A stretch of DNA of 64,000 nucleotides from Isurus oxyrinchus (Eukaryota): assembly GCA_026770705.1 (NCBI GenBank), contig JANJGN010000039.1, positions 10,292,001 through 10,356,000 of the forward strand, in the 5' to 3' direction. Positions 4,451 to 61,050 of the stretch are shown piece by piece. The stretch's first letter is position 1; every line of letters starts with the position of its first letter. The notes beneath the pieces were generated by a model. The model saw only the letters and a list, made by a program, of their open reading frames with translations. It searched no databases and was not told the origin of the DNA. A program made the translations under genes and the position numbers.

Positions 4451-4629
4451 CTGCCCCCTACCTGGGCCTCACCATCATTAGCCTGGGACAGCATGCTCTA
4501 CTCCCTGCCACAAATTATAATGCCTGACACCGCCAGTACCAACCCCCACTCCCACCCCCTCCCCCCGAGCGTCTCTATTGCTCTGGTGCCATTCAAGCGT
4601 TCACCATCCCTGCCCTTCTAGCAGTCTCA

Positions 4630-5150: not shown

Positions 5151-5845
5151 GCTCTCTCCTCCTGCCCGACTCTGTCAACCCTTGGGCCCTGCTATTTATA
5201 CTCCAGGCCCTGCTCTCTCCCCCGTCGGCCCATCTCTCTAAACCCCTCTATCCCCTGACATCACTCTGCCCCCTTCTGCCACACGTGCCTGCGCTGTACC
5301 CCCTCCCCTGCTCCAGCCGCACCTCCCTCTCTTCTACTCCTAGTGCCGGACCATACCTTAAAATCTCATATTTCCTCTATTTATCCCTCGTCTAATGAAA
5401 GACTTGTTTCACCATGCATTTGCTTCTGATATTCTCACTGCTGAACAAATGCATGGAAGAGCCAGTCTATGAATCGATGAGCAGCTCCACCGCATTGATT
5501 AAATCTGAGACATTTGAATCAATGATACCTTTCAGTGAATATTTGCAGCGTTTCTTTTCAGTTGAGTTGATGCTGAGGCTATTGTTACCTTCTGTCAACT
5601 GAGTATGAATGGGTAATCTAGAAGATGGAATACTGTCTGTGAGCAGTGAGTGAGATGGAGAGGTTGAGCTGGGAGACAGATGGAGACCTGGTTCAGAGAA
5701 GTAGGAATGATTCCAGGATGAATTTGCTAACTTTTCAAGCGGCGGAGAGTGAAAATGAAGTTATTGCTGCATTGCGTTTACAATTGATTCGCTGTATAAC
5801 TTCAACTATGTTTTATATTAACATGAATCATATTTTGTCTCACAG

Positions 5846-5990
5846 TCGCAGATTCAGCACTCATTGACCCCTGTGCAAATCACACCATCTTGGACCAGGC
5901 CTGGAGGAGCATCTATTGTAAATGGACTGAGTGCACTGGCCATTGGATGTGTGATAACAAACTTCAGGAAGGATGGTACCAATTTAAAAG
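5846..5990 (+). CDS. D8C-domain exon A (ADSALIDPCANHTILDQAWRSIYCKWTECTGHWMCDNKLQEGWYQFK)
   Basis: Acceptor tattttgtctcacag, donor AG|gtaatg. The DPC..HT.LD..WRS...CD..L..GWY.F motif matches the UMOD/GP2/OIT3 D8C N-terminus. Confidence 0.88.
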
Positions 5991-8900
5991 GTAATGTGCA
6001 GTGATGCATTCTGATAAACTGGGCAAAACTATGAAAGTGAGTGCAATAGCAGCAAATAGAGACAGGCACAGATCATCAGTAATGTTACTGGGAAAGAGTA
6101 AAAAGCAAATAAATTTGACTTTTGTAGATAGCGATTTGGTACACCTGAGCGGATTGCTCGGACATTTCCGACTCAAGAACATTGCTGTAGGTCTGGAGTC
6201 ACGTGTAGGCCAGTCCAGGTAAGCACGGCAGATTTCTTTCCCAAAGGTGAACCAGATGAATTGTTCCGGCAATGCTTGATGGCTTCACGGTCGCACAGTT
6301 ACTATGACTAACTTTATATTCCAGTTGGATTCTTTGCATTTAATTTGACAGCTGCCGTGGTTGGACTTGAGCATGTGTCCCGAGTACATGAGCATGCCTC
6401 AATGGCTCTTTCGTTTAGTGATAATATCACTGTGCCGCAACTACCCCATAAGTGGACAGTAGCATTCGCACCACACAAACGCCAGGCAATTACTATCATG
6501 AAAAAGACAGAATCTATACTTCTTCCCTTGTCACCCAAAGGCTTTACTATCGTTCAGTTGACCCACTATAAGCTAACTGATTAACTGCCCAGTAAGTATC
6601 CTCCATACTGCACAACCACGGCAGCTCAATGAAGTATAACAGAAGGAGACTTGGATTAATTGGACAGATCCTTCAAACAGCTTATTTGGGACATGATAGA
6701 ACTAGTGGCCTCATTCTGAGCTGTGCATTCCTTAAACCTATGATTCTCTAATTGATGTTTCAGTTCTGGTGGATTGAAGATTCCAGACACCCTCATCCCA
6801 TTCGGTTACTGTTCCACAAGTTCTTCAGGCTGGTTAAATGGTTTGTTCTGACTTTATAATATCAGATTTACATTCACTGTCCTACGCTGTTCACATTGGA
6901 TACATCCTTCAATATTTATAAACGTAATTTCAGGTTCACATCCCACCGTGGGAGAGGGGGAAGTAACCAGGACAGTTTGTTTTACCTCGGGTGAAAATGG
7001 CTGCCTCTGGACCCGAGAGATAAAGATTAAAAACTGCAGCAGTGACTTCGTTTATGAGCTGAAGCCGGTGCCAAGCTGTAATGCTGCTTATTGCACAGGT
7101 ACATTGCTGTTTATAAATGACCCAGGAGGGTGACTCTGGATGTGCGAGGTCACTCACATAAATAATAATGTTCCGCCTGCTCCTCATTGCTGCAAGTACC
7201 ACAAGGAATAATGACCTGAAAAATAAACTAAACTTTTCACCAAAACTATAGGGAACCGACTCAGACTCTATTGCCATTGCGGTCTACAAACAGCCCATCG
7301 TTTGATCACGTGATAGGTTTTCGAATGTGAGGGGGGTGTTATGGGGAAGGAGGGAAGAGGCAGATTGGTTTATAGAGGGAATAACAATGCTTAGATCCCA
7401 GGCAGCTGAACACACACTTGTCAGTGTTCTGGATCCGGAATTGGAAGAGCAGAGAGTAGTTTGATGGTTGTGGGCCTCGTACGAATATTATTGCGGCTGT
7501 GGTGGTGAACTGTGGACCAGGTTCTTGGAGGTACATGACCATCAAGAGTTTGCGCACCACATAAGAGCCTGAATTTTCTTGACTCAGAACCGTGTGACTT
7601 TGGTTGCAAATCGGGAAATGTGTGAGAGTCCTGTGGAATTTCCGAAGCACACACATGCACCGAATTTGCCCGTGAGGATTAATGTTATGATGGTCTTCTA
7701 CCCGTTGCTGGGAATCGAAGCAAATCTCTCTGATAAAATGCCCCAGAATATTCCATCACCGGCAGGCGGGCGGCCTCCCTCCCAGTAGATACCTCAGAAA
7801 GATTCACTGGGGAAGCCCTGGAAGTCAGCACGTGAAGGCTGCATGGAAATTGCACAGGAAGTTTGAAATTATGCTGGACAAATACGCAGCACCAGGAACT
7901 ATCCGATTATGCGATTTAAGTAGAGGAATTTCGATCGTTTTGACTCTCGTAGTTGAAAAATGAATAGGAAAGATGCTCAGTTCGCTTACCGCTAGGCTGA
8001 CCCTGGATGCGCTATGATAACCTACTGACCTCTGGATCACCTCCCCAATCCCCAACTGCTCTCTCCCGATCACCTTCCCAGGCTCTGACTACCCTCCAAG
8101 CCTGACCTCCAACAAAACCCTTGATTACGGTCCAAGCCCCCTGAAACTGATTACTCTCACACATACTCCAGTAATCCAGAGTTACCTTACCTCCGTGGCT
8201 ATATCATCTCACCGTGACCTCCCAACACGCATGGCTAACCTCCACATCTCTTGACTACAGTCCCCCAAGCCGCATGCCAATCACCCCGATCTTCAGAATA
8301 ACCCACGCTCCCACCCAAGAACTTGTCTTGAGAACAACTGACCACTGCGCCCCTCACAGGACACCGGTACTGCCCATCAAAGCCCCATTCCCATGCAAAC
8401 CTCCACATTGAGCTGAGACACCTGCAATCCCAACCCACCCTATTCAAACAACCCACCCCACATCACAACTTAATCAATAACCTTCACCCAGGCTCCATAA
8501 AGTGGATGGGGCTTAAAAACATGACTGCCTCACGGCAGCGAGTTCTGCAAAATTTGGCCCTCTGTTCACTAGCTCTAACATGCAGCCCTGCACTGCAGGT
8601 TCCCCAGGTGGTGCGGCCATGCACATTTTTCGTCGGGCTGAGGGGGATGTAGTGACTGAGGGAGGGTGAGATGTAGTGACTAATGAGAGTGGGATGTCGT
8701 TATTGAGGGGAGTAGGATGTCGTGATTGAAGGGATTGAGATGCAGTGCCTGAGCGGAGCAGGATGTAGTGACTGCGGGGAGAGGGATGCAATTACTCAGG
8801 GGAGTTGGCTGCATTCGCTGACGTAAGTGGGATGCATTGGCTGCAGGGACTGGGATGCATTGGCTGAGAGGAGTGGTAATTTGAGTATAGCCATGAGTGA

Positions 8901-11900
8901 CAGGGAATAAGTAATGAATAGAATCATGTTCTTAACATAATAAACAAGTACATGCTCTCTTGAGGTGTGCTGCAGTCTGCAATCTCCCATGTCTCCTTAC
9001 TTCATTTCAGATCCAGGTACAATACCAACTCTGAAACCTGAGGAACAGTCAACTCGTGAATACGATGTCACGGCATCATCGAGCCCAACAGAATCGGAAA
9101 TATCAGGTATTAGTCTGGCTGGAAAAGTCTACAGAAAATCCTCACATGTTTGATCTCTGAAACCTCACACTGAACGAACTGGAAGGTATTGACTGAGGGA
9201 TGCGGGATGCAGTGACTGAAGTGGGTCTGATGCAGTGACCATGGAGAGTGGGATGCAGTGAATAGGGGGCGTGGGATGCAGTGACTGGGGGGAGTTGGAT
9301 GTAGTGACTGAGGGGAGCGGGATGCCGTTAAGGAGAGGACCAGGACGCTGTGAATGAGGGGAGTGGGATGCAATGACTAATCGAGTGGGATGCCTTGAAT
9401 GAGGGGACGTGGATGCAGTGGCTGATTGAGCGGGATGGACTTGTTAAGGGGAGTGTGATGCAAGTAGTGAGAGGAGTGGTTGGCAATCAATGAGGGGACT
9501 TGGATTAATGGCTGATGGTGTGGGATGGATTTGTTTCCTTGAGTGTGATGCAGGGAGTAGGATGCAGTGACCGACGGGTTTGGAATGTATTTACTGACCT
9601 GAGTGGATTGCCGTGCTTAGGCTGTGGCCATTGTGTTGTATTTTCTGAGCGGAGTGGGATTATTGAACACAAGGGGTGGGATGTAGAGAGTTGTGTAATG
9701 GAATTCTGTGAATCTTGGTGGTCATGTTCATGAATGGATGCAGTGTGGTGCTGTCGCTGAGACGGCAGTTTCTTCCTTAGATTGGCATCGGTGTTTTACT
9801 GAACACTAACATGCACTCTTCAGGTTTACGGTCACTCATGTGCTCACTTCTGTTAATTATCTGAGGAGACTGGGATGCAGTGATTGAGGGGAGTGCGATG
9901 CAATGACTGAAGGGATTGTGATGAAGTGATGGAGCAGAGTGTGATGCAGTGATGGAGGAGAGTGGGATGCAGTGACGGAGGGGAGTGAGATGCAGTGACT
10001 GAGGGGAGGGTGATGCAGTAACTGAGGGGAGTGTGATGCATTGGCTGTAGTCAGAAGGAGGCAGTGACTGAGGGGAGATGGAAGCTGCTACTGAGGAGTG
10101 TAGGAGGCACTGACTGAGGGGAGTTTCATGAAGTTACTAAGGGGAGGGGGATGTATTGACTGAGGAGGGGGGAAGGAGGAAATGACTGAGGGGTGTGGGA
10201 TGCACTGACTGAGGGGAGGGAATGCAGCGACAGAGGGAGAGGAATGCACTGGTTGCGGAGAGTGGGATGTAGTGACTTAGGGGAGTGGGCTGCAATGACT
10301 GGGGGGTGTGGAATGCAGTGACTGAGTGGATTTGAAAGCTGGGACTGTGTGGAGTGGAATGCAGCGACTGAAGGAAGTAAGATGCAGGGACTGAGGGGTG
10401 TGGGTTGCAGTGACTGAGGAGAGTAAGATGCAGTGGCTGAGGGAAGCATGATGTGCTGACTGAGGGGAGTGGGTTGCAGTGACTTAGACGAGTTGGATGT
10501 AATGACTGAGGAAGTAAGATGCAAGGACTGAGGGTGCGGGATGCAGTGACTGATGGGAGTTGGATGCTATGACTGACTGGACTGGTATGTAGTGACTGAG
10601 GGAAGTAAGATGCAGGGACTGCGGAGTGCGGGATGCAATGATTGAGGGGCGGTGGGGCAGAATGCATTACTGTTGGGAGAGGGATGCAGCGACTGTGGGA
10701 AGTGGTATGCAGTGATGAGTGGATTGGCAGCTTTTTACTGAGAGGAATGAATATCAGTGGATTAGTTTATTGGGCTGCATTGATTGAGGCCAGTGTGCTG
10801 CATTGTCTGAGGGCAGTAGGATTATTGAAAGTGGGGAGAGATGTAGAGACTGACTTGCTGGAATTCTGGGACTGTTGGTATCTGTATCTATGAGTCAGGG
10901 CAGTGTGGCACTGTCGCCGAGCCGACTGGTTCACACTTAGATTGGCATCTGTGACTTATTGAACATTAGTATGAATTTTTAAAGTTTTCTGTCACTCAAG
11001 CGCTGACCTCTGTTTATATTGAAAGCAGTGGGATGCAGTGACATAGGGAAGAGTGACGCAGTGACGGTGGGGAGAGGGATGTATCGATGGAGGGGTGTGG
11101 TATGTAGTGACGGAGGGGGCTGGGATGCAGTGGCTGCGGGGAGCGGGGTGAACTGTCTGAGGAGAATGGTTTCAGTCACTGGGCGTCAGACTGACATTGG
11201 CGTGATTCAGACAGAGGAAAAAATAATGTGCATCACTTTCTTAACATTCCTACCAAGTAAAGCCTCTCTTGAGGTGATCTGCATTCTGCAGTCTCCCATG
11301 TCACCTTATCTCATTGCAGTCCAAGGGATAACACAAACTCTGAAATCTGAGGAACAGTCGACTCGTGAATACATTTTCACTGCAACATCCAGCCCAACAG
11401 CATCTGAACCAGCAGCTATCAGTGTGGAGGGTATATTCTACAGAAAATCTGCACATATTTGATCCCTGAAATCTCACAATGAAGTAACTGGAATGTAGGG
11501 CCTGAGAGCAGCGGGATGGAGTGTCTGAAGGCTGTCTGATGCATTGGCCGTTGGGAGTTGAATACCGTGACTGAGGGGACAGGGGTGCAGTGAGTAGATT
11601 ATGAGGGATGCAGTGACTGAGGGGAGAGTGATGCAGTGTCTGAGGGAATGGGGATGCAGTGAATGATGGGAGAATAATGTAATGACTGAGAATAATGGGA
11701 CATAGTGAATGAGAACAGTGGGATGTCATGCCTGAGGGGACTAGGATTTTGTGAATGAGGGGAGTGGTATGCCGTGAATAAGGGGAGTAGGATGTCGTGA
11801 CCGAGCGGAATGGAATGTCCTGACTGAGGGTAGGCAGACCTAGTGACTGATGGGAGTAGAATATAGCCGCTTAAGTGAATGGGATGTCGTCATTGAGGGG

Positions 11901-14814
11901 AGTGGGATGTCCTGATTGCAGGGAGTGGGAAGACGTGTTTGAGGGGAGAGTAATATGGTGATTGAGGGAAGTAGAATATCGTGACTGAGGTGAGTGGGAT
12001 CTCCTGATCGAGGGACGTGGAATGTCATGACTGAGGGGAGTGGGATGTTGTGACGGAGGTGCATGGGAGGTAGTGACTGAAGGGGCTGGGATGCAGTGAC
12101 TGAGCAGAGTGACTTAGTGACTTATGGGAGTAAGATTAGTGATGGAGTGGTGTGGGATGTAGGGACTGAGGGGAGTGGGATGCATTGACTGAGCGATGTG
12201 GGATGCAGTAACTGACGGGCATGGGAGGTAGTGAGTGAGGGGAGTTTGGATGCAGCTACTGATATGATTGGGATGTAGTGACTGAGGGCAGTGGGATGTA
12301 GTGACTGAGGGCAGTGGGATGTGGTGACTGAGGGGAGTGTGATGTCATGATTGAGGGGATTGAGATGCAATGCCTGAGGGGAGCAGGAAGCAGTGACTGC
12401 GAGGAGTGGGATGCAGTGACTGTTGAGAGTGGTTTTTAGTAATCGGGGTATAGCCTGGAGTGACAGAGTAGAATTAATGAAATGAATCATGTTCCAAACA
12501 TTATTAACAAGTAAATGCTCTCTTGAAGTGATGTGCACTTTGCAATCTCCCGTGTCTCCTTACTTCATTGCAGTTCCAGGGACAACAGCAAATCTGAGGA
12601 ATTTTCGATTAGAGAATCCACTGTCCCTGCATCATCTAGCCCAACAGGAACTGAAATAACAGGTGTCAGTCTGGAGTGGATATGCTCCAGAATATCTTCG
12701 CACATATACTTTCCGAAATCTTCTTATATAGGGAGGTGGGTTGGAATGTTTGAGGGGAGTGGGAAGTTGTGACTGTGGAAATTGGGAGATTTCTATTGAA
12801 TGAAGTGAGCTACAGTGGATGACGGGAAGGGGTGCATTGACTGAGGCCAGATTGTTGTTTTGTCTGAGGGGAGTGGTATTATTGAGCATGGGAAATGGTA
12901 TGTAGAGACTGATGGGCTGGAATTATTTGACTCTGGGTGGACATATTTATGACTCGGGGCAGTTAGGTGCTATCACTCAGCCGAATGTTTCAGACTTAGA
13001 TTGGCAGCTGCGTTTTACTGGACAGTAAAATGTACTGTTCAGGTTCTCTATCACTCCTGCACTGACGTCTGTTTATATTCATTTACTACATATCCAGATT
13101 CTTCCACAATTCAGAAACCTGAAGATCCAACAACTGGAAAATCCACTGGTAAACCACCTTCTAAATGTACCGCGCTTTTGACCTCGGGTATCTGTCTTGA
13201 GGGATTAAATCAATAATATTCTTTACCCAAAAAATCCTCCTGAAATTTTCACTCCCCGAGAGGCATGCATTCGCAATAATGCAAGCATTCTCTGACGAAA
13301 AATTGTCATTCCCCATCTCCAGTCTTCCTCTGAATTATCCCTTCAGGAGAGGGAGGACCGTCAGGTCTTATGATCGATTTGTAAGTATCTGTGGAAGTTA
13401 TACGTGCACTCCATGTGTTCCCCACTAACGATTGGCACAGGGTCAGCACATTATAACAGGAGAGTTGGATACTGACACTGTGCTGGAACTGAGGGAGTAC
13501 GATTTACACCACAGGAACAGGCCACTCTGACCAATTGGTCCACTCTGGGGGTCATTCTGCACACGACCATTCTGCATCCTCCAAATACCAGCCCTATTCA
13601 TCTGTTTCATTATCACTCATGTGTGTATATACCTCTTCTTGAAATGTCACTGACGTCAACCAATCTGGGAGCAAGTTCTAAGTTATCACCAGATTTCAGA
13701 TCCACAGTAAAGACATTTTTAAAAAAATATACTTATTGTAATTGACTATTTTAGATTTTATTTTCATCTGAAGTGCTCTTTCTCTCTCTTTGACTATCCA
13801 GTGCTTTAATCTCTGACTTTGTCTCTCTCTGCATCTATCAATCTCTCGTTTTCTCTATGTCGTTCCTTTCTACACTTCTCTGCGTCTCTCTCCCATTATC
13901 GCCAACTCTACTGGTCAATCTGAAAATGTCCCATTTCCTTGGCAACTAGGATTAATGAGTTGTAGTGGCTGATGGAAGCTCCATTCATGGCCCAAATGTA
14001 TTCTGATGTAGTTACTGAGGTAACATGAATGCAGTAACTGAGGGGATTGGGATGTAGTGATTGAGGATAGTGGGATGTCGGGACTGAGGATAGCGGGATG
14101 AAGTGACTGAGGCGAGTGAGATGCTTTGACTGAAGAGAGTGAGATGTAGTAACTGAATGGAGTGGAATGCAGTGACTGAGGACAGTGGGATGTATTGACT
14201 GAGGGGTGTGGGACGTAGTGACTGAAGGTAGGAGGATGCTGAGTCTGTGAAGATTCGCAATGAGTCAGTTTGGGACGTCGAATGTATTTGACTTTGTAGC
14301 CTCTACTTAGTTCACACTCTGTCTTGACACACGGAAGATTCGACAGATTGACACATGTGTTATAAAAACAGCTGCGTGACGTTCTCTGGACAGTTCTGCC
14401 GAATAAGGTTGAGCTGTTTAAGGGGATCCCCAAGTTCTCCCTTTTCTATCACCGTTTATTCCATATCGAGGGACATTGTTTCTCAGGTTCCTTAGTTGTG
14501 AATGTACCAGAGAATCCATTGAGAGACTATCCTCTATCTCAGCCTTGTCTCCAGCATCAGGTATCTGCTCTGTGGCGTTCTATCTAAGCTGATCCTTCAT
14601 TCATTTGGAGTCAACAATGACTCAGACCAAGAGATTTACCCTATATCTTGCTGAAGGTGTGGGATGCACTAACTGAAGTCTGGGTGATTTTGAGCAGAGT
14701 CACACGGGTGAACTGATCAACTTTTAGCGCAATAATAACATGTTTATTTATATTTATATATTTTATATATATATATATATATACAATATAAATATACACA
14801 CAAACACCAATATA

Positions 14815-14857
<43 letters not shown>

Positions 14858-17800
14858 CATATTATGATTTGTAAGGATACCACAAGGTACAAAGCTATCC
14901 CAAGCTCTTATTTTCACCGTATGTTCACAGTCCATGTAAAATTATGACACCCTGTGATCATTTTAACTACATCCTGGCATCCAGTGACAGATGCCACCTC
15001 AACTAAATGCTATGGATCTCTCATCAACTCCTCCCAGACACCTTTCACACCACACTTCCACATCAAACCACACTCTGTCTTTCATATGAAGAATTCCATT
15101 CTCCACTATCCAAGAGCTCACCTTGGAATCTTCTCACAAACTGACACTTTCTCTCAGTCGCCTTCCACAATGTTTCACCTGCGGATTCCAAGCTATCTTT
15201 CTGATGCTATTCTCCCCTGAGCCGCCACATGCATCCAAGCTGTCTTCCATGTGCTCTCTCTCTCATCGAATCAGCTATAACTGCAGTAACTTCACATGTC
15301 CTAGCAAAGAGTTAGACATTGAGACACCTTTTCAGTCATTCTTGCCTCATGCCAGCTCTTCTGGCTTTAAAACTGATTTCTGCTGCTTTTGTTTCTTTAA
15401 TTCTGAATTTGGAGACTTTCGCTCTGCCCCTCACCCTTCACTTCATTAATAGGACCCATTTTCGGTTTGTGCCCTTCCTTCACCCAGAAGTTCTGCTTGA
15501 CAATTCCTTTGGTTCCACTGCCCTGGATGTTGGGGTCTTCATATTAGCCTTGGATTGTTTACCTGTTCCCTTTGCACCAGTTTCTCTGGCAGCTACTTTC
15601 ATCCAATTTTAGCTTGGGACTAACTATCTTCCCCATTTATGTGACTTCAGCTTGGCAAATGGCTCCCAAAGAATCTAATGCAGTTTTGCTTCTGTTTTTG
15701 CCTGCGGGAGTGACCTTCGTCTATGGGCGACTGTTGCGAGACAATAGCACTGTTTTTGCCTGCTCTTGTGCTTGCTTAGCTTCGTAAGTCATAAGCCTTC
15801 ACTAGGAATGCGAGCGCCATTTTAAAGTAAAACTAAAACTCAACTTGAGCTTTCCTGATACTCAAATACAGAAAAACAAATGAAACTTAAACTTTAAAAC
15901 TGATATCAACTCCTAACACATAGAAATACCACTATAATCTACCTAAACTATCTCTATTTGCTAAAATGGGTGACGGTCACTGAAGCTTCATGTTAAATGG
16001 TTAAAATTTCCTGGTCTCCACACTCCTCCTTCTCTCATTGCCCTCCTCCTTTATTTCAGATCCTGGGACTTCCCCAACTCAGCAACCCGAGGAAGAATCG
16101 ACAAGTGAATTAGTTCGTATTTCAGCCTCTATTTCAGCGAAGACTTCAAGCACAGGTATCTGCATGGGTGGGGTTGATTCTAAACTGATCCTTCACTTTT
16201 TTGACTCGAGGAGGATGCAATCGAGGAGTATATTCTATATCTAACAGAAGGAATATGATGTTCTCTGAGTGGGATATGGTTTTCAATTTTTCATTAAAGT
16301 AGGATATGGTGACTGTGGGAGTTGGTTGTATCCTCTGAGCAGAGTGGGGTGTGGTGACAGAGGGGATGGGGATTTTGTGACTGAGCGGAGGGAGATGTAG
16401 TGACTGATCGCAGGTCGATCCAGTGACTGAGAGGATTGGTATGTAGTGACTGATTCGAATGGGACATAATGACTGAGGGGATTGGGACACAATGACTGAG
16501 TGGAGTGGGATCAAATTACTGAGGCAGCTGGGATGCAGTAACTGAGGGGAGTGGGATCAGCTGATTGAGTGGAATGGGAACGAGTGACTTGGGATATAGT
16601 GACTAATCGGATTGGGATGGAGTCACTGAGGGGAATGGGATTTAGTGACTGAGGGGTGAAGGATATAGTGTGTGAGGGGAGTGGGATGTTATAACTGAGA
16701 GGAGTGGGATGTTGTAACTGAGGGGTGTGGGATGTTTTAACTGAGGGGAGTGGGATGTTGTGACTGAGGCGAGTGGGATGTTGTGACTGAGCAGGGTGGG
16801 ATGTTTTCACTGAGATGAGTGGGATGTAATGAATGAGGTGAGTGGGTTGTACTGCCTGAGGAAAGTTTGATGTAATGAATGAGGTAGTGACTGAGGCGAG
16901 TGGGGTTTTGTGACTGAGTGGATTGGGTTGTTGTCACTGAACAGTGTGGGATGTAGTGAGTTAGAGGACTGGGATGTATTGTGTGAAGGGAGTGGATGTA
17001 GTGAGTAATGGGAGTGGGATGCAATGACTGAGGGGTATGGGATGTAGCGGCTGAGTCAGTGGGATGTAGTGATTGAGCGGTGGAATCCTAATTTGGAATT
17101 TTCCCATCTTTATATCATCGCCGCTTGCAATCGGCTCTCTCTTTAAACGTGCTTTATGCAGCTTTTGACTCTTTAAATCTGAGGCATGTTGCATGTCTCT
17201 CTTCCTCTCACTCTTACCTTCGTTAAGATGACCAGCTTGAGACTTTCTCCTGCTCCAAACCCGTATATTTTGTGCTATTTTCTTCAGTTTGGGGCTGGTT
17301 ATCTGATGCCTTTGGTCCAATCTCTCTGGTAGATACCTTCAACCAATTTTAGCTTGGGACTAGCTATCTGTCCCTATTCATTTCGCAACATTCTTGAAAG
17401 CCAGCAGAGCTCCAACAGCTTCCCACACAAGCTGCTGTCTTTATTCCTTCGTGTGTGCCTGTGAGAGATAGGTGCCTGCCTGGAACTCTGTTGCAGGGCA
17501 ATAGCACTATGTTATACTAATCTTGTGTTTGCTTAATTAATAATTTGTAAACGGTCATTAGAAATGCCAGTATCGTTTTAAACTGAAACCAAAATTCATG
17601 TTGAACTCTCTTATCACAAAAGTACAGAAATGCTAAGCAAGCCTAAACCTCAATATATTTGCTGTGTGACATTTACTGAAGCTTCATGTCAAAGAGTTGA
17701 AATCTTCCTTTTTCCCCCTCTCACTCCTCCTTCCCTCCTCTCCCTCCTCCTTTATAGCAGATCCAGGGACCTTCCTAACTCCAGAACCAAGGGAACAATC

Positions 17801-17959
17801 GACGACAGAATCCATTAATATTTCTCCCTCTATATCATCAAAGTCTTCAAACTCAGGTATCTGCACAGTGGTGTTGTTTCACTTAATTTGTTTATCATAT
17901 CACGCTTCTTCCTAAGTGGATTATTTGTTCCCAGAATGAGCTCACTCACAGGGCTCCAT

Positions 17960-18011
<52 letters not shown>

Positions 18012-20749
18012 GCAATTAATGGGCCAGATCATGTAAATGTGAAGGCAGGAATCATTCTCAATCGAATACATTATTCAATCTCTTACAAACTGGACTGAAA
18101 GATTGCCAGAGAAAAAATATATGTAATATTCCATTAAACTAGACTGCATTGACTGAGGGAGTGATGTTTAATATCTTAGCAGATTGGAGTGTGGTGACTG
18201 AGGGGAGTAGTATTTAGTGTTTAAAGGGAGTGAGCTGTAGTGACTGAGGGCAGTGTGATTTCTTGACTTAGCGGAGTGAGATGTATTGAATTAGTGGAGT
18301 GAGATGTAGTGAGTTAGAGGAGTGGCATGCAATGACAGACAGGATTAGTTATGTAGTGAAGGAGAGGAGTGGGATGCAGTGACTGAGGGGAGCGTGATGC
18401 AATGCTTCCGGGGGTGGGATGCACTCAGTGGAGGCTGTGGGTTGGAATTACTGGTAGGCGGGATGCAATGACTGAGGGGAGTGAGATGGAATGAGTGAGG
18501 AGAGAGGAAAACAATCCGTGAGGCGAGTGGGAATTAGTCAGTGAGTGGATTAAGATTTAGTGACTGAAGGGAGAGGGTTGTCATGACTGAGTTGAGTTGG
18601 TTAGAGCAAATGAGGAGAGAAGGCTGTAATGAGTGGAGGGAGAGGGATATAGTTGAGTAGGTTCAGTGGGGCGCAGTGACTGAGGGGTCTGGAAGTTTTT
18701 GACTGCGGTACAATCAGGAGTGACAGAGCAAACTAACATTTGTGTGTTCCAAATTATATAATTATGAATTGAAACGTTTTCTAAACTTTGCTACCAGTTG
18801 CATGATCTCTTGAGCTGATACGCACCCTCCATCTCTCTTGTCTCTTTTCCTCATTTCAGATCCAGGGAAAACACCAACTCCAGAATCTGAGGTACAGTCG
18901 ACTCGAAAATCCTCTCTCTCTGAATCATCCAGCCCAAAAGGATGTGAAATATCAGGTATCAGTCTGGATAGGAGATTCTACTTAAAATCTTCACACAATG
19001 TGATCGCTGCAAACTGATACTGAAGAGTCTGGGGTCTGCTAACTGAGGGGAGTAGGATGCTGTGACAAAGTGAAACGGCATGTAATCAGCGGGGGCAGTG
19101 GGATTTATTGACTGAGGGAAGTGGGATGTAGTCAATTTGAGTAATTGGATGCGTTGACTGAGGGTGAAGTACATAGTGGCTGATGTGTTTGGGACATGGG
19201 CTGAGCGGCGTTGGATGCAGTGACTTTAGGGAACTGGATGCAGTGACTGAGAGGAGTGGGGCGCAACGAGTGAGGTGAGTGGAACATAGTGACTGAGGGG
19301 TGTTGGATGTAGTCAGGGGGTGGAGTGGGATGCAGTAAATAAGGGAGTTGGACGCAGTGAGTGAACACATTGGGATTTAGTGATTGAGGGTATTTTGTAT
19401 AATTAGCCTAATCAAGCCCCTTTTCTCTCTTCCTCCATTTTCCAGTCACTTCTCTTCACTCTCACACTTGTTTCAGTTTCTCATCGCTCACTTCAGTTGT
19501 CTGTCGCTTGTTCTCTCACTCCTGTTGGGTGCTCCATGCTGAAGGTTTTGTTTTGCTGGTTTCTCTCAGAATTTGGAGAGTTTGGGCCCGGCAAATTTCT
19601 TTCTCTGTTGAAATGTAGATGATTCTGCAGCTGAGGATTTCTGAGAATCCTTTGGTGAGTAATGGTCCTGAATTATTCGCTGTGGTGAAGCAGTGGTATC
19701 AGGTTAAATAGGAAGTGAGGATGTCCAGAATAAAAGATCAGAAGTAATATGAGCAGAACTAAACTATTCGACCTGTGGAGCCTGTTCCACCATTCAATAC
19801 GATCATGGCTTATCTTGGGATTTACCTGAACTTTCCTGCCCGCTCCCCATATCCATTGATTTCTTGAGACACCAAAACATTGTCAATGTCAGGATTATAA
19901 ATATTTTTAGAAAGCTATTCCTTCCATCGATTAATGATTTTGAATCGCTGTCAAACCCCTGTCTTTCCGGAATATCCCTTTAGGGAAGGAAATCTGCCGT
20001 CATTCCCAGCTCTGAATGCTATGTGACTCCAGTTCCTGAGCAATGTGCCGGACTCCTAACTGTCCTCTGAAATGGCCCAGGTAGCCATTCAGTTGTAATA
20101 GGCCGCTACAGAGAAGAGACAGCACAGGAACTGTGGCAGTTCAAGAAGGCGCCTGCCCAACACCTTCTCAAGGCTTGTTATGGGTGGATAGTAAATGCGG
20201 GTCTTGCCTGCGATGCAGACACATAACAAATTAAAACAAAACAAAATAGTGTATTCGCTTTGTGTGAAATCACTCGAGACACGGTCTGCAGCTTTGTAAA
20301 CATTTCCTGAGCTTCTATCTCAGTCTCTGTATCACTTGTGTCTTCATCTCTCTGCCTCTCCCTCTCTGTCCCTTTCTTATTCTCACTGACAAGACGTAAA
20401 CATGGGATGAAAATGATATAAGAAGAGATAACAAGGGGCTGACATTGAAGAGTAAGTATACCAAATGATAATACGGAAAGCAGAGAGTTGAGATAAGATG
20501 GAGTGAGATGAAGAGATATATGGGGAGGGAAAACGGAGAGGGGATGATAAGGTGGATTAGAGGAAGCTGATCTTAAACGGAAGGGATTTTTCTAAACACA
20601 CAATCTGTCCTTTGTGAAATTCAGGGTAAGTCTAACCTGCTGATGTTGTGACTATTCTGTTAGATCCTGATTTCAAGATGCTTCGCGTGAAGGTCACCTC
20701 AGTACGAGGGCTCAATGAAGAGAGAGCGAGGGACATCATTATGGATCGG
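5846..20749 (+). CDS. Multi-exon uromodulin/GP2-like D8C-domain protein with repeated mucin-like stalk exons (first exon and 3' end unresolved; functional status uncertain)
   Basis: Exons 5846-5990, 6764-6840 and 6934-7098 have AG/GT sites and compatible phases and join into a D8C domain. They are followed by paralogous 96-bp phase-1/1 exons and a candidate exon at 20664-20749. Confidence 0.75.
6150..6440 (-). mobile_element. Elasmobranch SINE (SacSINE1-like) in intron
   Basis: Reverse complement matches the SINE core seen at 19960-20230, 43510-43750 and 60645-61002 (..ggaaatctgcc..ttacctgg..ggcctaca.gtgactccagacc.acagcaatgt..). The family name is from recall. Confidence 0.65.
6764..6840 (+). 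CDS. D8C-domain exon B (SSGGLKIPDTLIPFGYCSTSSSGWLNG)
   Basis: Acceptor atgtttcag, donor G|gtttgt. Phase 2 to 1, continuous with exons A and C. GG.KIP....C......WLNG motif. Confidence 0.85.
6934..7098 (+). CDS. D8C-domain exon C (SHPTVGEGEVTRTVCFTSGENGCLWTREIKIKNCSSDFVYELKPVPSCNAAYCT)
   Basis: Acceptor aatttcag, donor AG|gtacat. The HP...EG.V.R.VC......CLW...I.IKNC..FVY.L.P...C..AYCT motif is diagnostic of D8C. Confidence 0.92.
9011..9106 (+). CDS. Stalk repeat exon 1, 96 bp, intact (DPGTIPTLKPEEQSTREYDVTASSSPTESEIS)
   Basis: ttcatttcag acceptor, CAG|gtatta donor, phase 1/1, open frame. Confidence 0.78.
11320..11415 (+). pseudogene. Stalk repeat exon 2, 96 bp, donor mutated GT>CT (VQGITQTLKSEEQSTREYIFTATSSPTASEPA)
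   Basis: Clear paralog of 9011-9106 including flanking intron. Acceptor tcattgcag is intact, but the exon ends CAG|ctatca. Confidence 0.7.
12574..12662 (+). pseudogene. Stalk repeat exon 3, 89 bp (net 7-bp deletion, frameshifting)
   Basis: Paralog with AG/GT sites, but length 89 is not a multiple of 3. The 3' part reads SEEFSIRESTVPASSSPTGTEIT in a shifted frame. Confidence 0.68.
13092..13187 (+). CDS. Stalk repeat exon 4. Ancestral acceptor is CAT; an in-frame alternative acceptor at 13097/13098 gives 90 bp (DSSTIQKPEDPTTGKSTGKPPSKCTALLTS)
   Basis: 96-bp spacing to donor GG|gtatct. A downstream CAG 6 nt into the exon keeps the frame. Confidence 0.55.
14465..14560 (+). pseudogene. Stalk repeat exon 5, divergent, acceptor CAT (DRGTLFLRFLSCECTRESIERLSSISALSPAS)
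   Basis: 96-bp open frame ending CAG|gtatctgc like its paralogs. The acceptor position reads CAT. Confidence 0.5.
14748..14865. repeat. (TA)n-rich microsatellite
   Basis: Runs of tatatata seen directly. Confidence 0.9.
16060..16155 (+). CDS. Stalk repeat exon 6, 96 bp, intact (DPGTSPTQQPEEESTSELVRISASISAKTSST)
   Basis: Polypyrimidine tract plus ttatttcag, donor CAG|gtatct, phase 1/1. Confidence 0.78.
17761..17856 (+). CDS. Stalk repeat exon 7, 96 bp, intact (DPGTFLTPEPREQSTTESINISPSISSKSSNS)
   Basis: Long polypyrimidine tract plus tagcag, donor CAG|gtatct, phase 1/1. Confidence 0.78.
17962..18008. repeat. (TA)n microsatellite
   Basis: Perfect AT dinucleotide run. Confidence 0.95.
18860..18955 (+). 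CDS. Stalk repeat exon 8, 96 bp, intact (DPGKTPTPESEVQSTRKSSLSESSSPKGCEIS)
   Basis: tcatttcag acceptor, CAG|gtatca donor, phase 1/1. Confidence 0.78.
19619..19654 (+). other. Candidate 36-bp phase-1/1 micro-exon with in-frame TGA (DDSAAEDF*ESF)
   Basis: ttctctgttgaaatgtag acceptor and strong G|gtgagt donor. TGA at 19642-19644. Confidence 0.4.
19735..19900 (-). mobile_element. CR1 LINE 3'-end fragment
   Basis: gagcaga...attcg.cc..t.gagcctg.tcc.ccattcaata.gatcatggct.atc, similar to the CR1 3' end at 47805-48370. Confidence 0.6.
19960..20230 (+). mobile_element. Elasmobranch SINE (SacSINE1-like)
   Basis: cctttagggaaggaaatctgccgtc...gtgactccag...caatgtg...ctctgaaatggcc..., shared with the other copies in the window. 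Confidence 0.65.
20664..20749 (+). CDS. Candidate C-terminal exon of the D8C gene (DPDFKMLRVKVTSVRGLNEERARDIIMDR)
   Basis: tattctgttag acceptor, CGG|gtgaga donor. Starts in phase 1 with DP like the stalk exons, and the frame is open. Confidence 0.5.
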
Positions 20750-20934
20750 GTGAGAGACTGCACTGCATTCAGGACAGACATGACAAAAAAACAGATCCTC
20801 CCTTTAAAACTCTGCATTCCCTGATCGGGAGCACCCTCCTCAGATAACAGTTCCAATTTCCACTCTGGTTATTCTACCGTCTAGTGATCAGAAACTAAAC
20901 TGGACTCGCCAAGAAATACTATAGCTACAAGAGT

Positions 20935-21330
20935 AGTTCAGAGGCTGGGAATCGTGCAGCGAGCAACATGCCTCCTGACCACCCCAAAGCCTGTCCACCA
21001 TGTACAAGGCATATGTCAGGAGTTTGAGGGAATTCTCCCCATTTGCCTAGGTGAGTGCAGCTCCCACAACACTCAATAAGCTTGACACCGTTCAGGACAA
21101 AGCAGCCCCTTTTGATGGCCCCCCAAACCCGCCAGCCACAATCATTCACTCCCTCCACGACTGACACACAGTAGCTGTGTACGTACAATCTACATGATGC
21201 ACTGCATGAATTCACCGAGGGTCTTTAGAAAGCATCTTCCAAACCCACGGCCGCTACCATCTGGAAGGACAAGGGCAGTAGACACACGGGAACACAGCCA
21301 CCTGGAAGCATACATCCCACGAATGAATTT
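20935..21330 (+). mobile_element. Non-LTR retrotransposon (L2/CR1 superfamily) RT C-terminal fragment
   Basis: Homologous to 53190-53360 (KA.VRS.MEYSPL.WMS.AP.TLK.LDT.QD.AA.LI motif). Degenerate. Confidence 0.75.
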
Positions 21331-24008
21331 TTAAAAATGAGCTATTTTTCATGATCAATCCACTTCTCTCAGATTCAGTCATCTTGCCCAATCCCTCCCT
21401 TGATTGCGTCACTCACCCATCATTTCTTCTGTTTGCGGCAGCTCCAGAAGGATCAATGTCTAATTGGGTTGAAGCGTGAGGACATTCAGTGCTCAGGTGT
21501 GGACCATCCAGAACCGTGAAAGAGATGGAGAGTGTCACCGAGCCGCCGTGATCCCAGCTCCTTGTGCATTTCAAACTCGCTCGATGACTACTCTGCTTTA
21601 CCTTCAGCGTCTTTAATGCAATGAATCTGTCAGCAAAGTGATCATCCATAACTAGGTATGTGTGATTCTGATGCGGCTATTGCTTCAGCTCCACACTGCA
21701 AGAGTGGGGGAGTTCTTCAAGCCTAGTTAAATATAGAATGCGGCCCCTCTTTTAGATCAGTGACCTCTGGCCAGCCTGAAGCCAGATTGGCCCACCAGTT
21801 CCGGCCCGTTTCAGGATGGAAGTGATCTCCTGTTTAATGAAGGTTTTCGATTAAAGATCTCCAAAGGTGTAAAAGCCCTAAAGTTTCATGGAACTGTCAA
21901 CACTGAGAATGGGCGCATGAACCACAGGTAGATGCTTGTTACAGGACAGCCACTGGGAAGATATGCTCTATTTAATCAATGTTTCTGTAGAATGGGGGAA
22001 TAATTTGGTGCTGGGCTTTGCAGAACCAAAAATAGGCTCACAAGTCAAGATTATATTGAATGTAAGGATAATTTCGTTTGGCAATAGCTGGGTTAGTTCT
22101 GCTGTATAAATTTGTGATGATGTTGGTGTGACAGAAAGAAAATGTTAGGGTATCAGCTGAATTAAGAAAAGTGACTGATAAGAGGTGGATTCTTTACACG
22201 GAATTATATTCTTGAGGAAGTGAAAAGTAAGAATTATTTTTTTTTACATTTTTCACTGACGACCATCAATAGAAATGCTGTGAAATGACTCATTGACCCT
22301 ACAGGGTAATCCAAACAAACTGCACAGGTCAGCAAAGTGGGCTTCAATTGATGGGTAATCAGACAAGGAGATATCTCAGCTCGAAAGGCATCAATAAAGT
22401 GGCAGATTGCAAACAGTGTTCCAATTACAAGGGTTTGAATGGCTGAACACTGAGTTTACAACTAGAACATGCTTACATCACTGATAACACCACTCTGATG
22501 TGAAATCTGTTTGATTTTAAACTTTGTGTGTAATTGCTGTTGCTTGAGTTGTGTGCACAATAAATTTCTGAACGCTTAACCTGAACCTTTTAGGAAGCTC
22601 TTTCATCTTTTACTGGAATGGTTGGATCACCTGACACCTTTCTTCTCTCCCTTTCTATTTGAGGGCTGCTCACTGAGTGGAGAGCGTCAGTGTCAGGAAG
22701 GCATGGGAGTGTGAGGGATGATTTGTTTCCACATTCCCAGCTCCCAGAGTCAAAGCCTCTTCTAAAATCCTTTCACTGTCTTGTGATTAAAGTGTTACAA
22801 CCCAACCTCTGCTGGACGCCCCCCTGCCTCTACAGGCCCTGCTCTTAGCCGGTCCTAGAGAAGTTCAGTTGCTGCATGGCTGCCTCTGGAAACATATCAA
22901 TGAAGTGTGAATATTGAACAATGTTGAAAGGCATTGAAGTTTGCAGAGGGATGGAAAGTTCACTCGGGTGGTGCATTTGTTAGTTGACCACCTGACCCTT
23001 TGCACGAACTTTCTCCTCATTCTCCATTGGAGATATTGGCTGGAGATGGTAGCTGGGTATTATTTCAGACAGCAAGGTGCACATTTGTTTCAGTTATCAG
23101 GCTCTAATCCAGTACAGAATGGAATTAGATAAACGTTGCTGTACTCTGTAATTCCTGTGCAACACATTGGCAATGTTTGAACCGACACATTGGATCTTGT
23201 TAAACGTTTTCATTAAATATGTCTTCAAGATAATTTTCTCATTTTCTCTCAGAGTATTCGTCAATAGAAAATATATTGAAAACACAAACAGACAATGGGA
23301 CAAACATTATTGTTAACTTTACTTTTATAAGAACACTCCAGTGTTGAACATGGTATCACATCCCATCCCACAATATCCCTGGTTTACTCAATCTTCCCCA
23401 TGGAACCTGCAGTAGAATCAGCCTCACCCAATCTACCTGGCATGGCTTTCCCTATTACTGTTCCTAATTTGCCTCCAGGCTGACAGTGGCATTTTACCAA
23501 CTTCTCCGCATCTAGGCCCCAATATAAGGGCTATAGAGTGAGACAGCTGACTCTAGGATTGAGATTCGGCCGTGGCCCCTCCAGTGGCCATGGAAACAGA
23601 TATGAGCTTGACACTTTCCCCAGCGAGAGAGCGTCCTCCCCACTTTTTTTTAACAGAGTCATAGAATCCGCTCGCCCCTCTGCCAACGAAGCCAGAGGGA
23701 ATGTCCCCCTCTACCTCCACAGTGACAGGCCCTACCACTACTGACACTAGAGTGACAGGCTCCATTCCTCCTCTTTTACCATAGCAAAAGCACCAGCCTC
23801 ACATTCCCCGTGATAGCAGCAGCACCCCCCCCCCTCTCTAACCATAGTCAAAGGCTCCAGCACCCGCTTTGTGACCAGTGCATTAGGCAACAGCCTGGGA
23901 ACCGGACCAATCCCCATTCTCTAACAACAGAGGCAGCTCACATCCCTGCTGGAGGAAAGAAATCAAATGGTAAAGTAATGGAAACTCTCAGTGATTTATT
24001 TCTTCAAA

Positions 24009-43750: not shown

Positions 43751-44809
43751 ACATGTTTCCTTGTTCATTTCCTTAGCTCCTTTCATTAAAATTTGCATGG
43801 ATGCTGCCACAATGTGCATCAATGGTCACAAGGAAATCGCATGTGATGGACGGTGTTGGATGTGTTGTCACAGACACTGACACCATTCACAGCGGATTGT
43901 GCCAGAGAGTGATGAGGAAGCTGATGTACTGGGCACACTGCGTCTCAGAAAGGTTCAGCTTGTTGACAGGCCCCGGAAAGCAGTTGGTTCTGAATGGACG
44001 TGGAGAATAAGAGGTGGCATTGTTCACTGGATGGGTATTGTCTCGGTGGGATGAGTACTGTTTGTCTTGTCCTGATATGGAGGTCAATGATGAAGCTGTA
44101 ATAGAATGTTAGCACGGTGTCCGTACAGCAGGGCTGGAGGACGGTGTAGAAAAGAGAATTGGCACGTCAAAAATACATAGATTTTAAATCATTGTGTGAT
44201 TGGGAGTTGAACATGGAGAAGGAAAGGATTGTGGTCAAGGAATTGGTGTTTTTCAAGAGCGTGTAAGGAAGTGGTGATCATTTTTGTCTACCGATTTCCC
44301 AAATTAAAAGATGGGCGTATGAACAATTGGGCATGATAGAGCTCACGTCAGCTTATTGAGTTCCCAGTGAGGAAAGGAGGTAGGGGTCACTCTGCCTGTT
44401 GGGGTTCCGGTGAAGAAGGGAGGTAGAGTTCTCTTTCTCTGAGGGAGGATGGTACGCTCACCCACAATAAATCGATATACACAGTAATCCATTGCGCCAC
44501 CCCCCGATTATGAATCCCTCCCATTACCCATTCTATTAAACTGTTGATATTAATTTTGTGTTTTACTTCCTAGAATATCACCCGGTGAGGTGAGGAGTCT
44601 GCTGCTCATTTCTTGTGTAAGTCATTTGCATTTCGGTGAAAGTCGACTGTGTTTATTAAACATTTGTCACGGAACAAAAACCCACGTCCCATAGCCCATC
44701 CCATTTGTGACGCTGATCAGAGCAGTTTAATTTTTCTGCTTGGGCCAGAAGTATAGGCAGCATTGTTACCATTGTACACGGAATGTATAATTACAAAGAG
44801 ACATTGTTC

Positions 44810-45810
44810 AGTTCAATTCTTCTTATCATGTCCACTGATAGTCTTTACGCATTTTTGCACCTTGTTGTTGAATTCGGCAAGATCTGCATCAATGCAGGGT
44901 TCCTCTAGCGATGGACATTGCAGCAGATGTTGCATAGTCTGTGGCTCAGTTCCACATTCACAAGTTGTCTGGCAGGATGTATATCCCCATTTGCTTAGTG
45001 ACACCTTTGAATGACGTACACAAGTCCTAATTCTGTTAAGGCACTTCCAGGTTGCCCAGTTGCAATTAGCTCCTGGGGGAAGGCTTGCATCCGGTAGAAT
45101 TTCCATCATTATGGGTTGATCGAGACTGGCGAACTGGTCTGTCGACAAGGCGATGCGGGCTTCAGATGGGGTTGATTGTAATGGAACAACACGGTTCATC
45201 AAGCCCTTCGTTGACTATTGGCAGCTGGATTTAGGCGTATGACCTTGTAGAGGGCGCCTGTCACCTGAAGTTTGACGGAGTTGCTCTTTCTTGCTGGCTA
45301 TCGTTCTTCTTATATCAGGGGGAGCAATACCTGCCAGAATATATATGCTGTTGGTGATTGTTGGTTTTAAACAACCAGTGAAAAGTAGGCAGATTGCATT
45401 CAGAACGGCATCCATCTTCTTAGCATGAGCAGATCTTTCCATGCAGGGCAGGCGTATTCGGCAGTGGACTAGCAAAGGGCAAGTGCACTGGTCGCAATGC
45501 TTTCAGCCTTGCTCCCTATTTTGTGTTAGTGAGCTTAATCAGGATGTTGTTTCGTGCGCTCACTTTTGCCTTTGTCTTTTCGATGTGGTTCTTGAAGTTG
45601 AGGCATCTGTCAAGGGTGACTTCTAGGCAGATAGGGTGTCCGTGTTGCTCCACACCAGGTCACTTTAAGCTAGTGCTTGGTTTCATGGTTTCTGAGGTGG
45701 AAAGCACAAACTTGCGTTATTGATGGGTTTGCACGCACGTGGTTTTCTTCAGAGTAGGATCTTAGTCCCTCCATGGCCTCAGAAAGCGTTTTCTCCACGG
45801 TGTTAAAATC
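44810..45810 (-). mobile_element. Vingi/Ingi-like non-LTR retrotransposon 3' fragment
   Basis: ERSAHAKK.D..LN..C...TGCLKPT....YILAGIAPPDIRR and W.TWKCLNR.RT....SK..L.KWGY....CECG..PQTMQHLLQCP (C-terminal CCHC), with frameshifts. The clade call is from recalled motifs. Confidence 0.72.
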
Positions 45811-45919
45811 AGTGCATTCAGTCATCAAAAACTAATCAGGCAACAGAGTTTGACAAGTTCCACTAAGGTGAGTCGTTCCATCTCAGAATCTGACTATCAC
45901 TCTTAAATTGGAATTGAAA

Positions 45920-46595
45920 CCTTGTTCGTTGTGTTGGGGGTTTGGGGTTTCAGTGATTTGTGGGGTTTAGGGATTCAGTGTTAATCGGGTTTGGGGTTCA
46001 GTTTTAGAGGCGATTTGGGGTTTCAATGTCATTCGAGTTTGAGGGATCAGTGTTAGTGGAGTTTGCAGGTTCAATGTTAGAGGGGTTTGGGTGGGTTCGG
46101 TGTTAGTGAATTTTTTGAGTTCAGTTCTAGCGGAGTTTCAGGGTTAAGTGTTCGTCCGGTTTGGGGGTTTCAATATTAGTAGAATTTGAGTGATCGGTGT
46201 TAATGGGATTTGGGTGATTTTTGTTAGTAGAGTTTTTCGGGCGGAGGGTTTGGTGTTTGTAGATTTTGGGAGTTCAGTGTTAGTGAGACTTGGGATGCAG
46301 TGTTAGTGGGACTGGGGGTTCAGTATCAATTAGTATCCAGCAGTCATTCACGGGCTGTGGGTGCCAACAATTTAATAACAAAAATTGGCATTAACCATTC
46401 GATCGATTGGGTTCAGTGTTCAGTGTTTTGGGGATTTCAGTGTTCATGGTGCTTGGGGGATCAGTTTTAATGGGGGTTGGGATTTCAGCGTTAATAGTGT
46501 TTTGGGGTTCATTGTTTCTGGGGTTCAGTATTACGGGGCTCCTTGTTTTTGTGGTTTGAGGGGTTCAGTGTTAGTGGGATTTAGGGGTTCAAAAA
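45920..46595. repeat. Degenerate ~22-bp G/T-rich minisatellite (GGGTTTGGGGTTCAGTGTTAGT)
   Basis: Recurrent ttcagtgttagtgg/ggtttggggg motif. Confidence 0.75.
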
Positions 46596-47804
46596 GCACT
46601 TGTTATGTGTAACACTTCCTTGTATTATCACAGACCCAGACACGTAACAGAACGAGGGATCTGAGGCACAATATAGTTGAGACTCCCGTCGGAGTTCATG
46701 CTTTGTCATAGTCGGATCATCAGACTCAGGTACCTGAATTGTCAACTCAAATTGAGGATAAACTTCCCCCAACACAACTCAATCACGGAGAATCGTTCAG
46801 TCTGTCATCAATGGGGAATATACAGAGTGTTGAGTCTTGCCCCTTTCCTAGCCCCCACCCCCAAGTAACCACTCCCCTCCAATCTACCTCCGTACCCAGT
46901 TCCCACTCTCACCTCTAACCCTGCCAAGGGGCTTTGAGTGGGTGTATCTGAAACCTTGTCCTCTCAGTGTTACAGCGGTCCTGGACCTCAGCAACCTGGA
47001 ATGTGACCAGATCAATACCGAAGTCCAAGACATTTACATCTCCAGGAACAAACTGGACACTCGCGAGGAAAAGAAAGCCTATTTTCAGCAGGTGACGGGA
47101 TTCATCCTGCAGGCATTGTCGGGCTGTGGGCAGCAGCCAATCAACAAGATGAGTCGGCATTATTTAACCATTTCATTGATTGATAATCTCCAGTTCGCAT
47201 TGAGTCAAGGGCAGGGATTCGATTTCCCTTCCTCACTCTCTGGGAGGGGTTTAATTGAAACGATTGGGGGGAGGGGAGTCAGTTTCCCAAATGCTGTATG
47301 GGCAGACTGTGAGCTGGTGTGGAGTGGACAGGGAGTGTTCGGGTGTTGGAGGGGTGGGACATGTTCCCCCCTCTTGTTCAGGGATGGAAGTTCGCTCGTA
47401 CTAAATGGCCATCGATGTCTCATGAGTTTCCCTTGTTAGTTGCTCAGTAACTACGATCCCAGTCAATCCGACCTCACTCCTTACCTATCCATTCCGAGGT
47501 ACATGAAATGCTGAAAAATATTCTTACCTGTAAGAAGCTGGTGCCAAAATTACAAGAGAATCCCGGCGAGGAAAGGAATAAATGACCCAGAAGATCCAGG
47601 TTGGTTGGCGAGTGGGTTGGAACCTGATTTCTGGAATGAGGGACAGGCTCCGGGAGCATGAGGGTGTGGTCTCATTGGTGGTGGAGCATGGGGTTGGGTG
47701 TTGTCTTTCGGGGTTATTATTTGATTTTGGGTTTGGGGTGTGCTTGAGCCTGAATCATCATCTGTGATAGCTTTTGGTATAACTCAAGAATTCTTATTTT
47801 GTGA

Positions 47805-61040: not shown

Positions 61041-61050
61041 AGATGATTTT

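Follow-up and report, generated by a model that had tools for sequence, protein, structure and literature searches.

Divergent symmetric stalk exons, four of eight broken, among decayed minisatellite arrays in a D10C-domain gene of Isurus oxyrinchus

DMBT1, the stalk exons of CD45 and CD44 and the pseudoexon of glycophorin B are examples from mucosal or surface glycoproteins, with head domains other than D10C, in which the spacer changes in length through splicing, duplicated exons or lost splice sites. That one exon can encode one mucin repeat, with the length of the whole set by splicing, is an already known principle: each PTS repeat of chicken Muc13 occupies its own exon, and control of length by splicing is proposed in the available text of its description (PMC1552070), while the Xenopus integumentary mucin FIM-C.1, built on another head domain, is described in the accessible part of its report as a glycoprotein of variable spacer length (PMC7177656). 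For exon duplication driven by a minisatellite, our literature search returned one entry (PMC2816608, available in part). Among D10C proteins, the glycan at N65 of GP2 binds FimH, and a beta-hairpin of GP2 (residues 41-60) shields the high-mannose glycan, according to the available portion of PMC8930769. The zebrafish omcins are D10C genes that have multiplied within their lineage and differ in the number of modules; one of them, omc5, protects against bacteria, and sharks go unmentioned (0 text matches) in the available text of that paper (PMC11415648). We found no published description of a shark D10C family without ZP domains in a search that covered mostly open literature. Comparable entries exist in RefSeq as elasmobranch models called uromodulin-like, GP2-like, OIT3-like or uncharacterized, the nearest of which (LOC121274779) has the same head, four stalk units and the same tail; these are database predictions, in which neither dead exons nor flanks without an exon nor the surrounding repeats are visible.

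Here, we analysed a window of 64,000 nucleotides from Isurus oxyrinchus (the whole stretch, contig JANJGN010000039.1, positions 10,292,001 to 10,356,000) that contains such a gene (Table 1). We propose that the stalk of this gene is made of cassette exons that probably arose by old tandem duplications carrying an intronic minisatellite along, and that stalk length varies by exon skipping and between paralogues; four of the exons are broken. The nearest orthologue, Carcharodon carcharias LOC121274779 (XP_041038052-59), maps exon by exon onto the head, the stalk exons e1, e6, e7 and e8 and the two tail exons, with 119/126 identical amino acids in the head, 114/124 in the stalk and 50/53 in the tail (84-100% per exon). 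The protein thus mapped has a signal peptide, known from the great white orthologue (no signal-peptide exon was found in positions 1-5845 of the window), a D10C head, a stalk rich in Ser, Thr, Pro and Glu that is predicted to be disordered (pLDDT <50, residues 147-272) and a tail of about 50 residues. ZP or EGF family matches were absent from all 10 proteins scanned (0/10), the gene stops at 21519, and a search for a membrane or GPI segment beyond residue 25 found a peak 19-residue hydropathy of 0.2-0.7 in 6/6 proteins; the protein is likely secreted. All 40 protein matches of the last head exon come from sharks or rays, with D10C the only precomputed family on each. The 3' untranslated part likely reaches ~23,200, with a poly(A)-type hexamer at 23212. 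In the basking shark, isoforms P0024 and P0050 have alternative ends that agree with a GT at about 21497, inside the final coding exon. Run X20, from a second organism (organism B, a related species ~5% diverged) and presumed to be an RNA run, yielded contigs whose ends coincide with the borders of head exon 3 (6933-7098) and with 21441, where a contig of 1805 letters starts that extends 1516 letters beyond 21700. Contigs bounded in this way by exon borders suggest that the gene, or close paralogues of it, is transcribed and spliced in organism B.

Table 1. Coordinates, within the 64,000-nucleotide window, of the D10C gene, its minisatellite, its exon-less flank copies and a decayed paralogue.
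Feature	Position	Strand	Details
D10C head exon 1	5846..5990	+	145 nt, phase 1/2; 43/47 aa as in great white P0041
D10C head exon 2	6764..6840	+	77 nt; 25/25 aa identical to great white
D10C head exon 3	6934..7098	+	165 nt, phase 1/1; PF23283 31.6 bits, cut-off 27
Decayed 23-bp G-rich minisatellite, separate arrays	8638..19388	+	203 units, mean 76% to consensus
Individual arrays, about	8638-8868, 9175-9620, 9866-10810, 11024-11161, 11484-12424, 13951-14249, 16317-17077, 18135-18707, 19025-19388	+	
e1	9011..9106	+	intact; 31/31 aa identical to great white
U1, exon-less copy of the flank preceding e4	9613..9857	+	enters minisatellite where the exon should begin
U2, exon-less flank copy	10821..11020	+	repeat's ATGCAG in register with e4's ATCCAG
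e2	11320..11415	+	donor CT; frame open
e3	12574..12662	+	89 nt; 7-nt deletion giving frameshift and stop
e4	13092..13187	+	acceptor CAT; CAG at +6 would yield 90-nt exon
e5	14465..14560	+	acceptor CAT
e6	16060..16155	+	intact
e7	17761..17856	+	intact; tandem TAGCAG acceptor (17758-17761), plus/minus Ala
e8	18860..18955	+	intact; 29/31 aa identical to great white
Tail exon 1	20664..20749	+	86 nt, phase 1/0
Tail exon 2	21442..21519	+	ends with stop codon
Decayed paralogue	44573..47585	+	broken signal-peptide exon from 44573; tail exons 46976-47091, 47499-47585

The head is a D10C (D8C) domain by profile (PF23283, 44.7 bits against a cut-off of 27) and matches the structure PDB 7p6r both in sequence (E 8e-26) and in the fold of its predicted model (E 2e-15, rmsd 2.2 A, target TM 0.83). 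It shares with the decoy modules of GP2 and uromodulin the D10C fold and has sequons equivalent to GP2 N65 (an N-H-T in head exon 1) and N122, but differs in keeping 8/10 cysteines, with the equivalents of C107-C145 replaced and an extra pair in the first loop, and in lacking the N-terminal beta-hairpin, such that the alignment begins at GP2 F60/D61, right after the orthologue's signal peptide. Unlike GP2 and uromodulin, the shark protein has no EGF domain, ZP domain or hydrophobic C-terminus and carries instead a mucin-like stalk and the 50-residue tail; zebrafish Omcin5, by the available text of its report, likewise differs in having EGF, ZP and a predicted GPI anchor (PMC11415648). GP2 and uromodulin are soluble decoys that present glycans to the adhesins of microbes, and by analogy the head might do the same, a role that we consider possible and put forward tentatively; the absent glycan-shielding hairpin, the loss of C107-C145 and the presence of the N65-type sequon in just 31/67 head modules of the family argue against it. 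The tail is family-specific: it has no Pfam family match, and a profile search returned nine proteins, of which eight are family members or fragments and the ninth is P0058. Its predicted model is of low confidence (pLDDT 64) and its best atlas match (0.78) is a lead only; a SEA-like or fish-lectin-tail identity was without support.

A sequence-only reading of the window had described eight paralogous exons of the 96-bp type, and all eight are found at their claimed starts, symmetric and in phase 1/1. Its account of their condition was likewise borne out: four (e1, e6, e7 and e8) are intact, with CAG acceptor, GT donor, 96 nt and an open frame in phase 1, while the remainder comprise one exon with a CT donor (e2), one frameshifted at 89 nt (e3) and two with CAT acceptors (e4 and e5), of which one was said to be rescuable, as it is in e4 by an in-frame CAG at +6 that e5 does not have. 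A weak in-frame GT also lies 6 nt downstream of e2. Pairwise identity among the stalk exons is 47-79% (300 shuffles: mean 26%, maximum 43%) and sets e1/e2/e3/e8 (75-79%) and e6/e7 (72%) apart as groups, with e4 and e5 distant. The live exons contain 35-42% Ser and Thr and 65% Ser, Thr, Pro and Glu; the latter figure is 55% in the open frames of e2 and e4, and the composition of e5 has decayed, with 11/31 hydrophobic residues versus 3-5 in other stalk exons. Conservation is no higher in the exons than in the flanking sequence, and pooled pN/pS is 0.73 in six live-live and 1.11 in six dead-dead pairs, which are few and non-independent. The stalk resembles that of Muc13 in having one Ser/Thr/Pro-rich repeat per symmetric exon; unlike Muc13, which in the available text has near-identical repeats and SEA and transmembrane domains (PMC1552070), the shark repeats are old, divergent and half of them pseudoexons. 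Co-duplication of the flanking intron sequence, also claimed from the sequence, was recovered among the stalk exons, and two flank copies, U1 and U2, have no exon. The in-register junction at U2 would arise by chance about 1 time in 23, and is a single event. An assembly artefact was considered and rejected, as DNA contigs of run X1 (10390-11923, 12305-14178 and 14246-14736) reproduce the broken-exon region gap-free, differ from it at 0-6 letters and cover all four broken exons; X1 is possibly the source sample, and these contigs are therefore not independent support.

Comparison of organism A (run X1) with organism B, whose contigs cover all eight exon regions, allowed two of the deaths to be ordered. 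At place 11416, in the donor of e2, G is found in all depth of both organism-B runs and in 233/537 of X1, where the contig with C alone has single-locus depth, such that the G in X1 likely comes from a paralogue. Since organism B has the G, as does a second copy of organism A, the loss of the e2 donor is recent. An X5 contig of 1943 letters over 12315-14283 has 28 gap letters and resolves to one inserted letter, so the 7-nt deletion of e3 is common to organism B and older than the CT donor. Basking shark proteins have counterparts of e1 (25/31 aa), e6 (25/31) and e8 (26/31), placing those duplications before that split, and the youngest stalk exon pairs are ~20-25% diverged.

Every stalk exon could be included or skipped in any subset, according to the sequence-only reading; this is right for the reading frame but not for use, as e1 and e8 are present in 6/6 and e2-e5 in 0/6 of the distinct predicted proteins of great white. 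Variation of stalk length by splicing, which it had also suggested, is visible in the same models, three of which retain all four live exons, two lack e6 and one lacks both e6 and e7 (e6 is missing in isoforms X3, X4 and X7, and e7 in X7), with isoforms X3 and X4 differing by one Ala through the tandem TAGCAG acceptor of e7. Predicted isoforms that differ by exactly one stalk unit occur in two genes of the epaulette shark and one of the sawshark; all of these isoforms are computed RefSeq models, and the near-identical units of the latter two species could mislead them. Contig depth in X20 was 31, 18, 46 and 73 in the bins with e1, e6, e7 and e8 and 2.7, 2.3, 0.6 and 0.25 in those with e2-e5, a weak hint in which the e7 bin takes in an AT repeat. 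The 15 best-supported of 454 joints, all from X1, were repeat-to-repeat and were rejected as stemming from copies of the repeat at other loci.

Across 36 shark and ray relatives the number of stalk units ranges from about 0 to 12, a count for which the stalk profile missed most units of P0053, P0026, P0007 and P0014 (giving 1, 0, 0 and 1), and recent bursts are lineage-specific; together these indicate birth and death of stalk units family-wide. Self-identity of the stalk protein is 73-97% in Mustelus, Heptranchias, Hemiscyllium, Chiloscyllium and Scyliorhinus and 27-43% in lamniforms. In a tree of 66 rows and only 31 columns, with 12/49 inner branches starred and many open forks, the units group by species, with independent expansions in at least five lineages; its branch lengths are not a test, as the short live branches partly reflect the orthologues included. 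Lamniform paralogues have 2-4 stalk units, and in P0046 and P0004 the head exons and e1 were duplicated together, with 1-4 heads per protein, showing that the phase 1/1 logic multiplies heads too. The window itself holds a decayed paralogue with a GAG acceptor, a second tail type like that of great white P0056 and a ninth stalk exon (46634-46729, two stops; E 0.005-0.035 with a profile of the eight) that matches a great white protein in 20/34 aa; no D10C head exons were found between 44.6 and 46.6 kb.

The gene and its decayed paralogue share the window with clustered 7TM genes of the rhodopsin family, each in a single exon, and fragments of such genes on the minus strand (24187-25050, 25899-26627, ~50915-51800, 57291-58244 and ~60250-60632), the members of which are 70-74% alike and two ORFs of which match 7tm_1. 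In the stingray model P0029, a 7TM stretch that looks similar by eye precedes the D10C modules, a hint that the two kinds of gene may be neighbours in rays as well. An open frame of 391 codons (27493-28668, plus strand), with no Pfam match at 0.001, resembles what we take to be the end of a Penelope-type retroelement. Several tandem arrays lie outside the stalk region: a C-rich array of 19-bp units (122-3403) located upstream of the D10C head, a homogeneous 37-bp satellite (32437-36046; 97 copies, 96% matches) within a wide decayed halo of its unit (31543-40889), a 69-bp array (49142-50257), a decayed 18-bp array (53357-54611) and a young 41-bp array (61050-62187; 27 copies, 95%) adjoining a 7TM gene fragment. 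The 37-bp array is young, unlike the 23-bp minisatellite of the stalk.

The introns had been described as filled with that 23-bp repeat, which does not hold for all of them (67, 79, 32, 23, 5, 46 and 50% array cover in the seven introns from e1 to e8, and 42% of 9011-18955); the e5-e6 intron is without an array. Were the minisatellite still driving unequal crossover, exon number would differ between alleles and individuals, and several observations point that way: arrays flank 6/8 exons and share variants across duplicated blocks, both between 8708-8776 and 12333-12401, in the arrays beside e1 and e3 (score 18), and between 9627-9761 and 10789-10921 at U1 and U2 (score 18-21), with overall scores of 17-21 against a null of 60 shuffles whose 95th percentile is 11-12 and maximum 14.5-18. 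Such shared diagnostic variants indicate that arrays were copied along with the exons. The homology of the e1/e2/e3 and U blocks fades inside arrays, and U1 and U2 lost their exon at a repeat junction, though breakpoints within arrays are partly expected given that 42% of the region is array, and the start of the e6/e7 block, at 15344, lies outside the repeat. To these can be added the recent donor loss in e2, the near-identical stalk repeats of other sharks, a 23-letter deletion (one unit length) somewhere in 12651-13696 of organism B, two organism-B contigs whose match begins at 10587, preceded in one of them by 107 letters that do not match, and the tract of greatest homogeneity (16736-16793), which is unbridged by the organism-B pieces listed. 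In run X10, a contig of depth 67 follows the window over 17343-17763 and then, at the start of e7, departs into 223 unlike letters, possibly as a paralogue or as an allele without e7; a contig of X5 continues across e7 as far as 17881. In the three DNA runs compared, all as short contigs, paralogues confound a count of exons between individuals. Against continuing crossover stand the units themselves, with 0 identical pairs among 203, neighbours 67% alike and a longest perfect match of 31 bp; the divergence already reached by the youngest exon pairs; the e5-e6 intron; and the largely colinear arrays of organism B, in which five array-rich pieces, hand-picked from the 16 organism-B pieces listed and overlapping between two runs, have 166 substitutions (5.6%) and 2 gap letters in 2965 letters, with 7 gap letters in each of two further pieces over 16793-17365. 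The basking shark counterparts of e1, e6 and e8 speak against it too, and we judge a still-active process to be quite improbable. Of the crossover mechanism that the sequence-only reading proposed, a past role is hinted at by the arrays copied with exons and by the U1/U2 junctions, and a present one is not upheld; the arrays are better seen as fossil, and may have provided some of the junctions while they were still young.

At the other extreme, the minisatellite could be a pure passenger and skipping mere splicing noise, with other causes for the duplications and a stalk length that is irrelevant to the protein. Summed contig depth over array bins reaches 16,000-22,000 compared with ~290 and 60 for single contigs, indicating that many further copies of the repeat exist at other places in the genome, and this abundance, the 42% array cover, the divergence of stalk exons at about the rate of their flanks and the existence of relatives that manage with 0-2 units would all be expected of a passenger. 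The in-register junction of U2, the intact state in which lamnids and basking shark have kept the e1, e6 and e8 types despite the death of other copies, and the recurrence of stalk expansion, independently, in five or more lineages would not, and we find this explanation unlikely. A narrower question is whether some of the exons counted as dead are alive at a low level, e4 through its +6 CAG (90 nt) and e2 through the +6 GT (102 nt) or through an intact donor in relatives. Their open frames at 55% Ser, Thr, Pro and Glu, the GT donor of e2 in organism B and, for e4, the 30-residue, Gly-starting units of Mustelus P0001 and P0002, which fit use of a +6 CAG (in proteins only), are in favour; the absence of e2-e5 from all six great white proteins, the X20 bin depth of 0.25-2.7 (a weak hint) and the long branch of e4 (1.81) make such use very doubtful. 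Our preferred reading is old, minisatellite-carrying duplication with subsequent loss, which we consider likely, and stalk length today likely varies by exon skipping and between gene copies and not by ongoing repeat-driven crossover.

Under this preferred reading, blocks of exon plus intron would have been duplicated in tandem by unequal exchange, and the repeat, then younger, may have supplied some of the junctions, most plausibly in the loss of the exon from U1 and U2. Tandem duplication would be tolerated because every exon is in phase 1/1. The stalk appears constrained in composition and not in sequence, with weak selection on residues, such that surplus copies can be carried and are lost through splice-site changes or deletions. 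Judging from its composition, O-glycosylation would make the stalk an extended spacer of ~32 residues per exon, and the remaining copies would, on the predicted models, be skippable in frame.

Within 10 kb, this locus shows live, skipped, donor-dead, acceptor-dead, frameshifted and deleted exons, and with two deaths orderable relative to a species split it offers a compact test case for the gain and loss of spacer exons. The elasmobranch family uncouples the head of GP2 and uromodulin from the ZP filament. A broader proposal, which at present we regard as rather doubtful, is that a large family of secreted D10C decoys without ZP exists in sharks and rays, and that its head number and stalk length were diversified by duplication of symmetric exons, their death and their regulated skipping, with intronic minisatellites, while young, seeding the rearrangements. 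If true, this would constitute a mucosal anti-adhesion repertoire independent of the filament-forming uromodulin, GP2 and omcin, of which the locus described here would be a frozen record; and if the family members are secreted decoys, they would be a so far missing component of innate defence at the mucosal surfaces of sharks.
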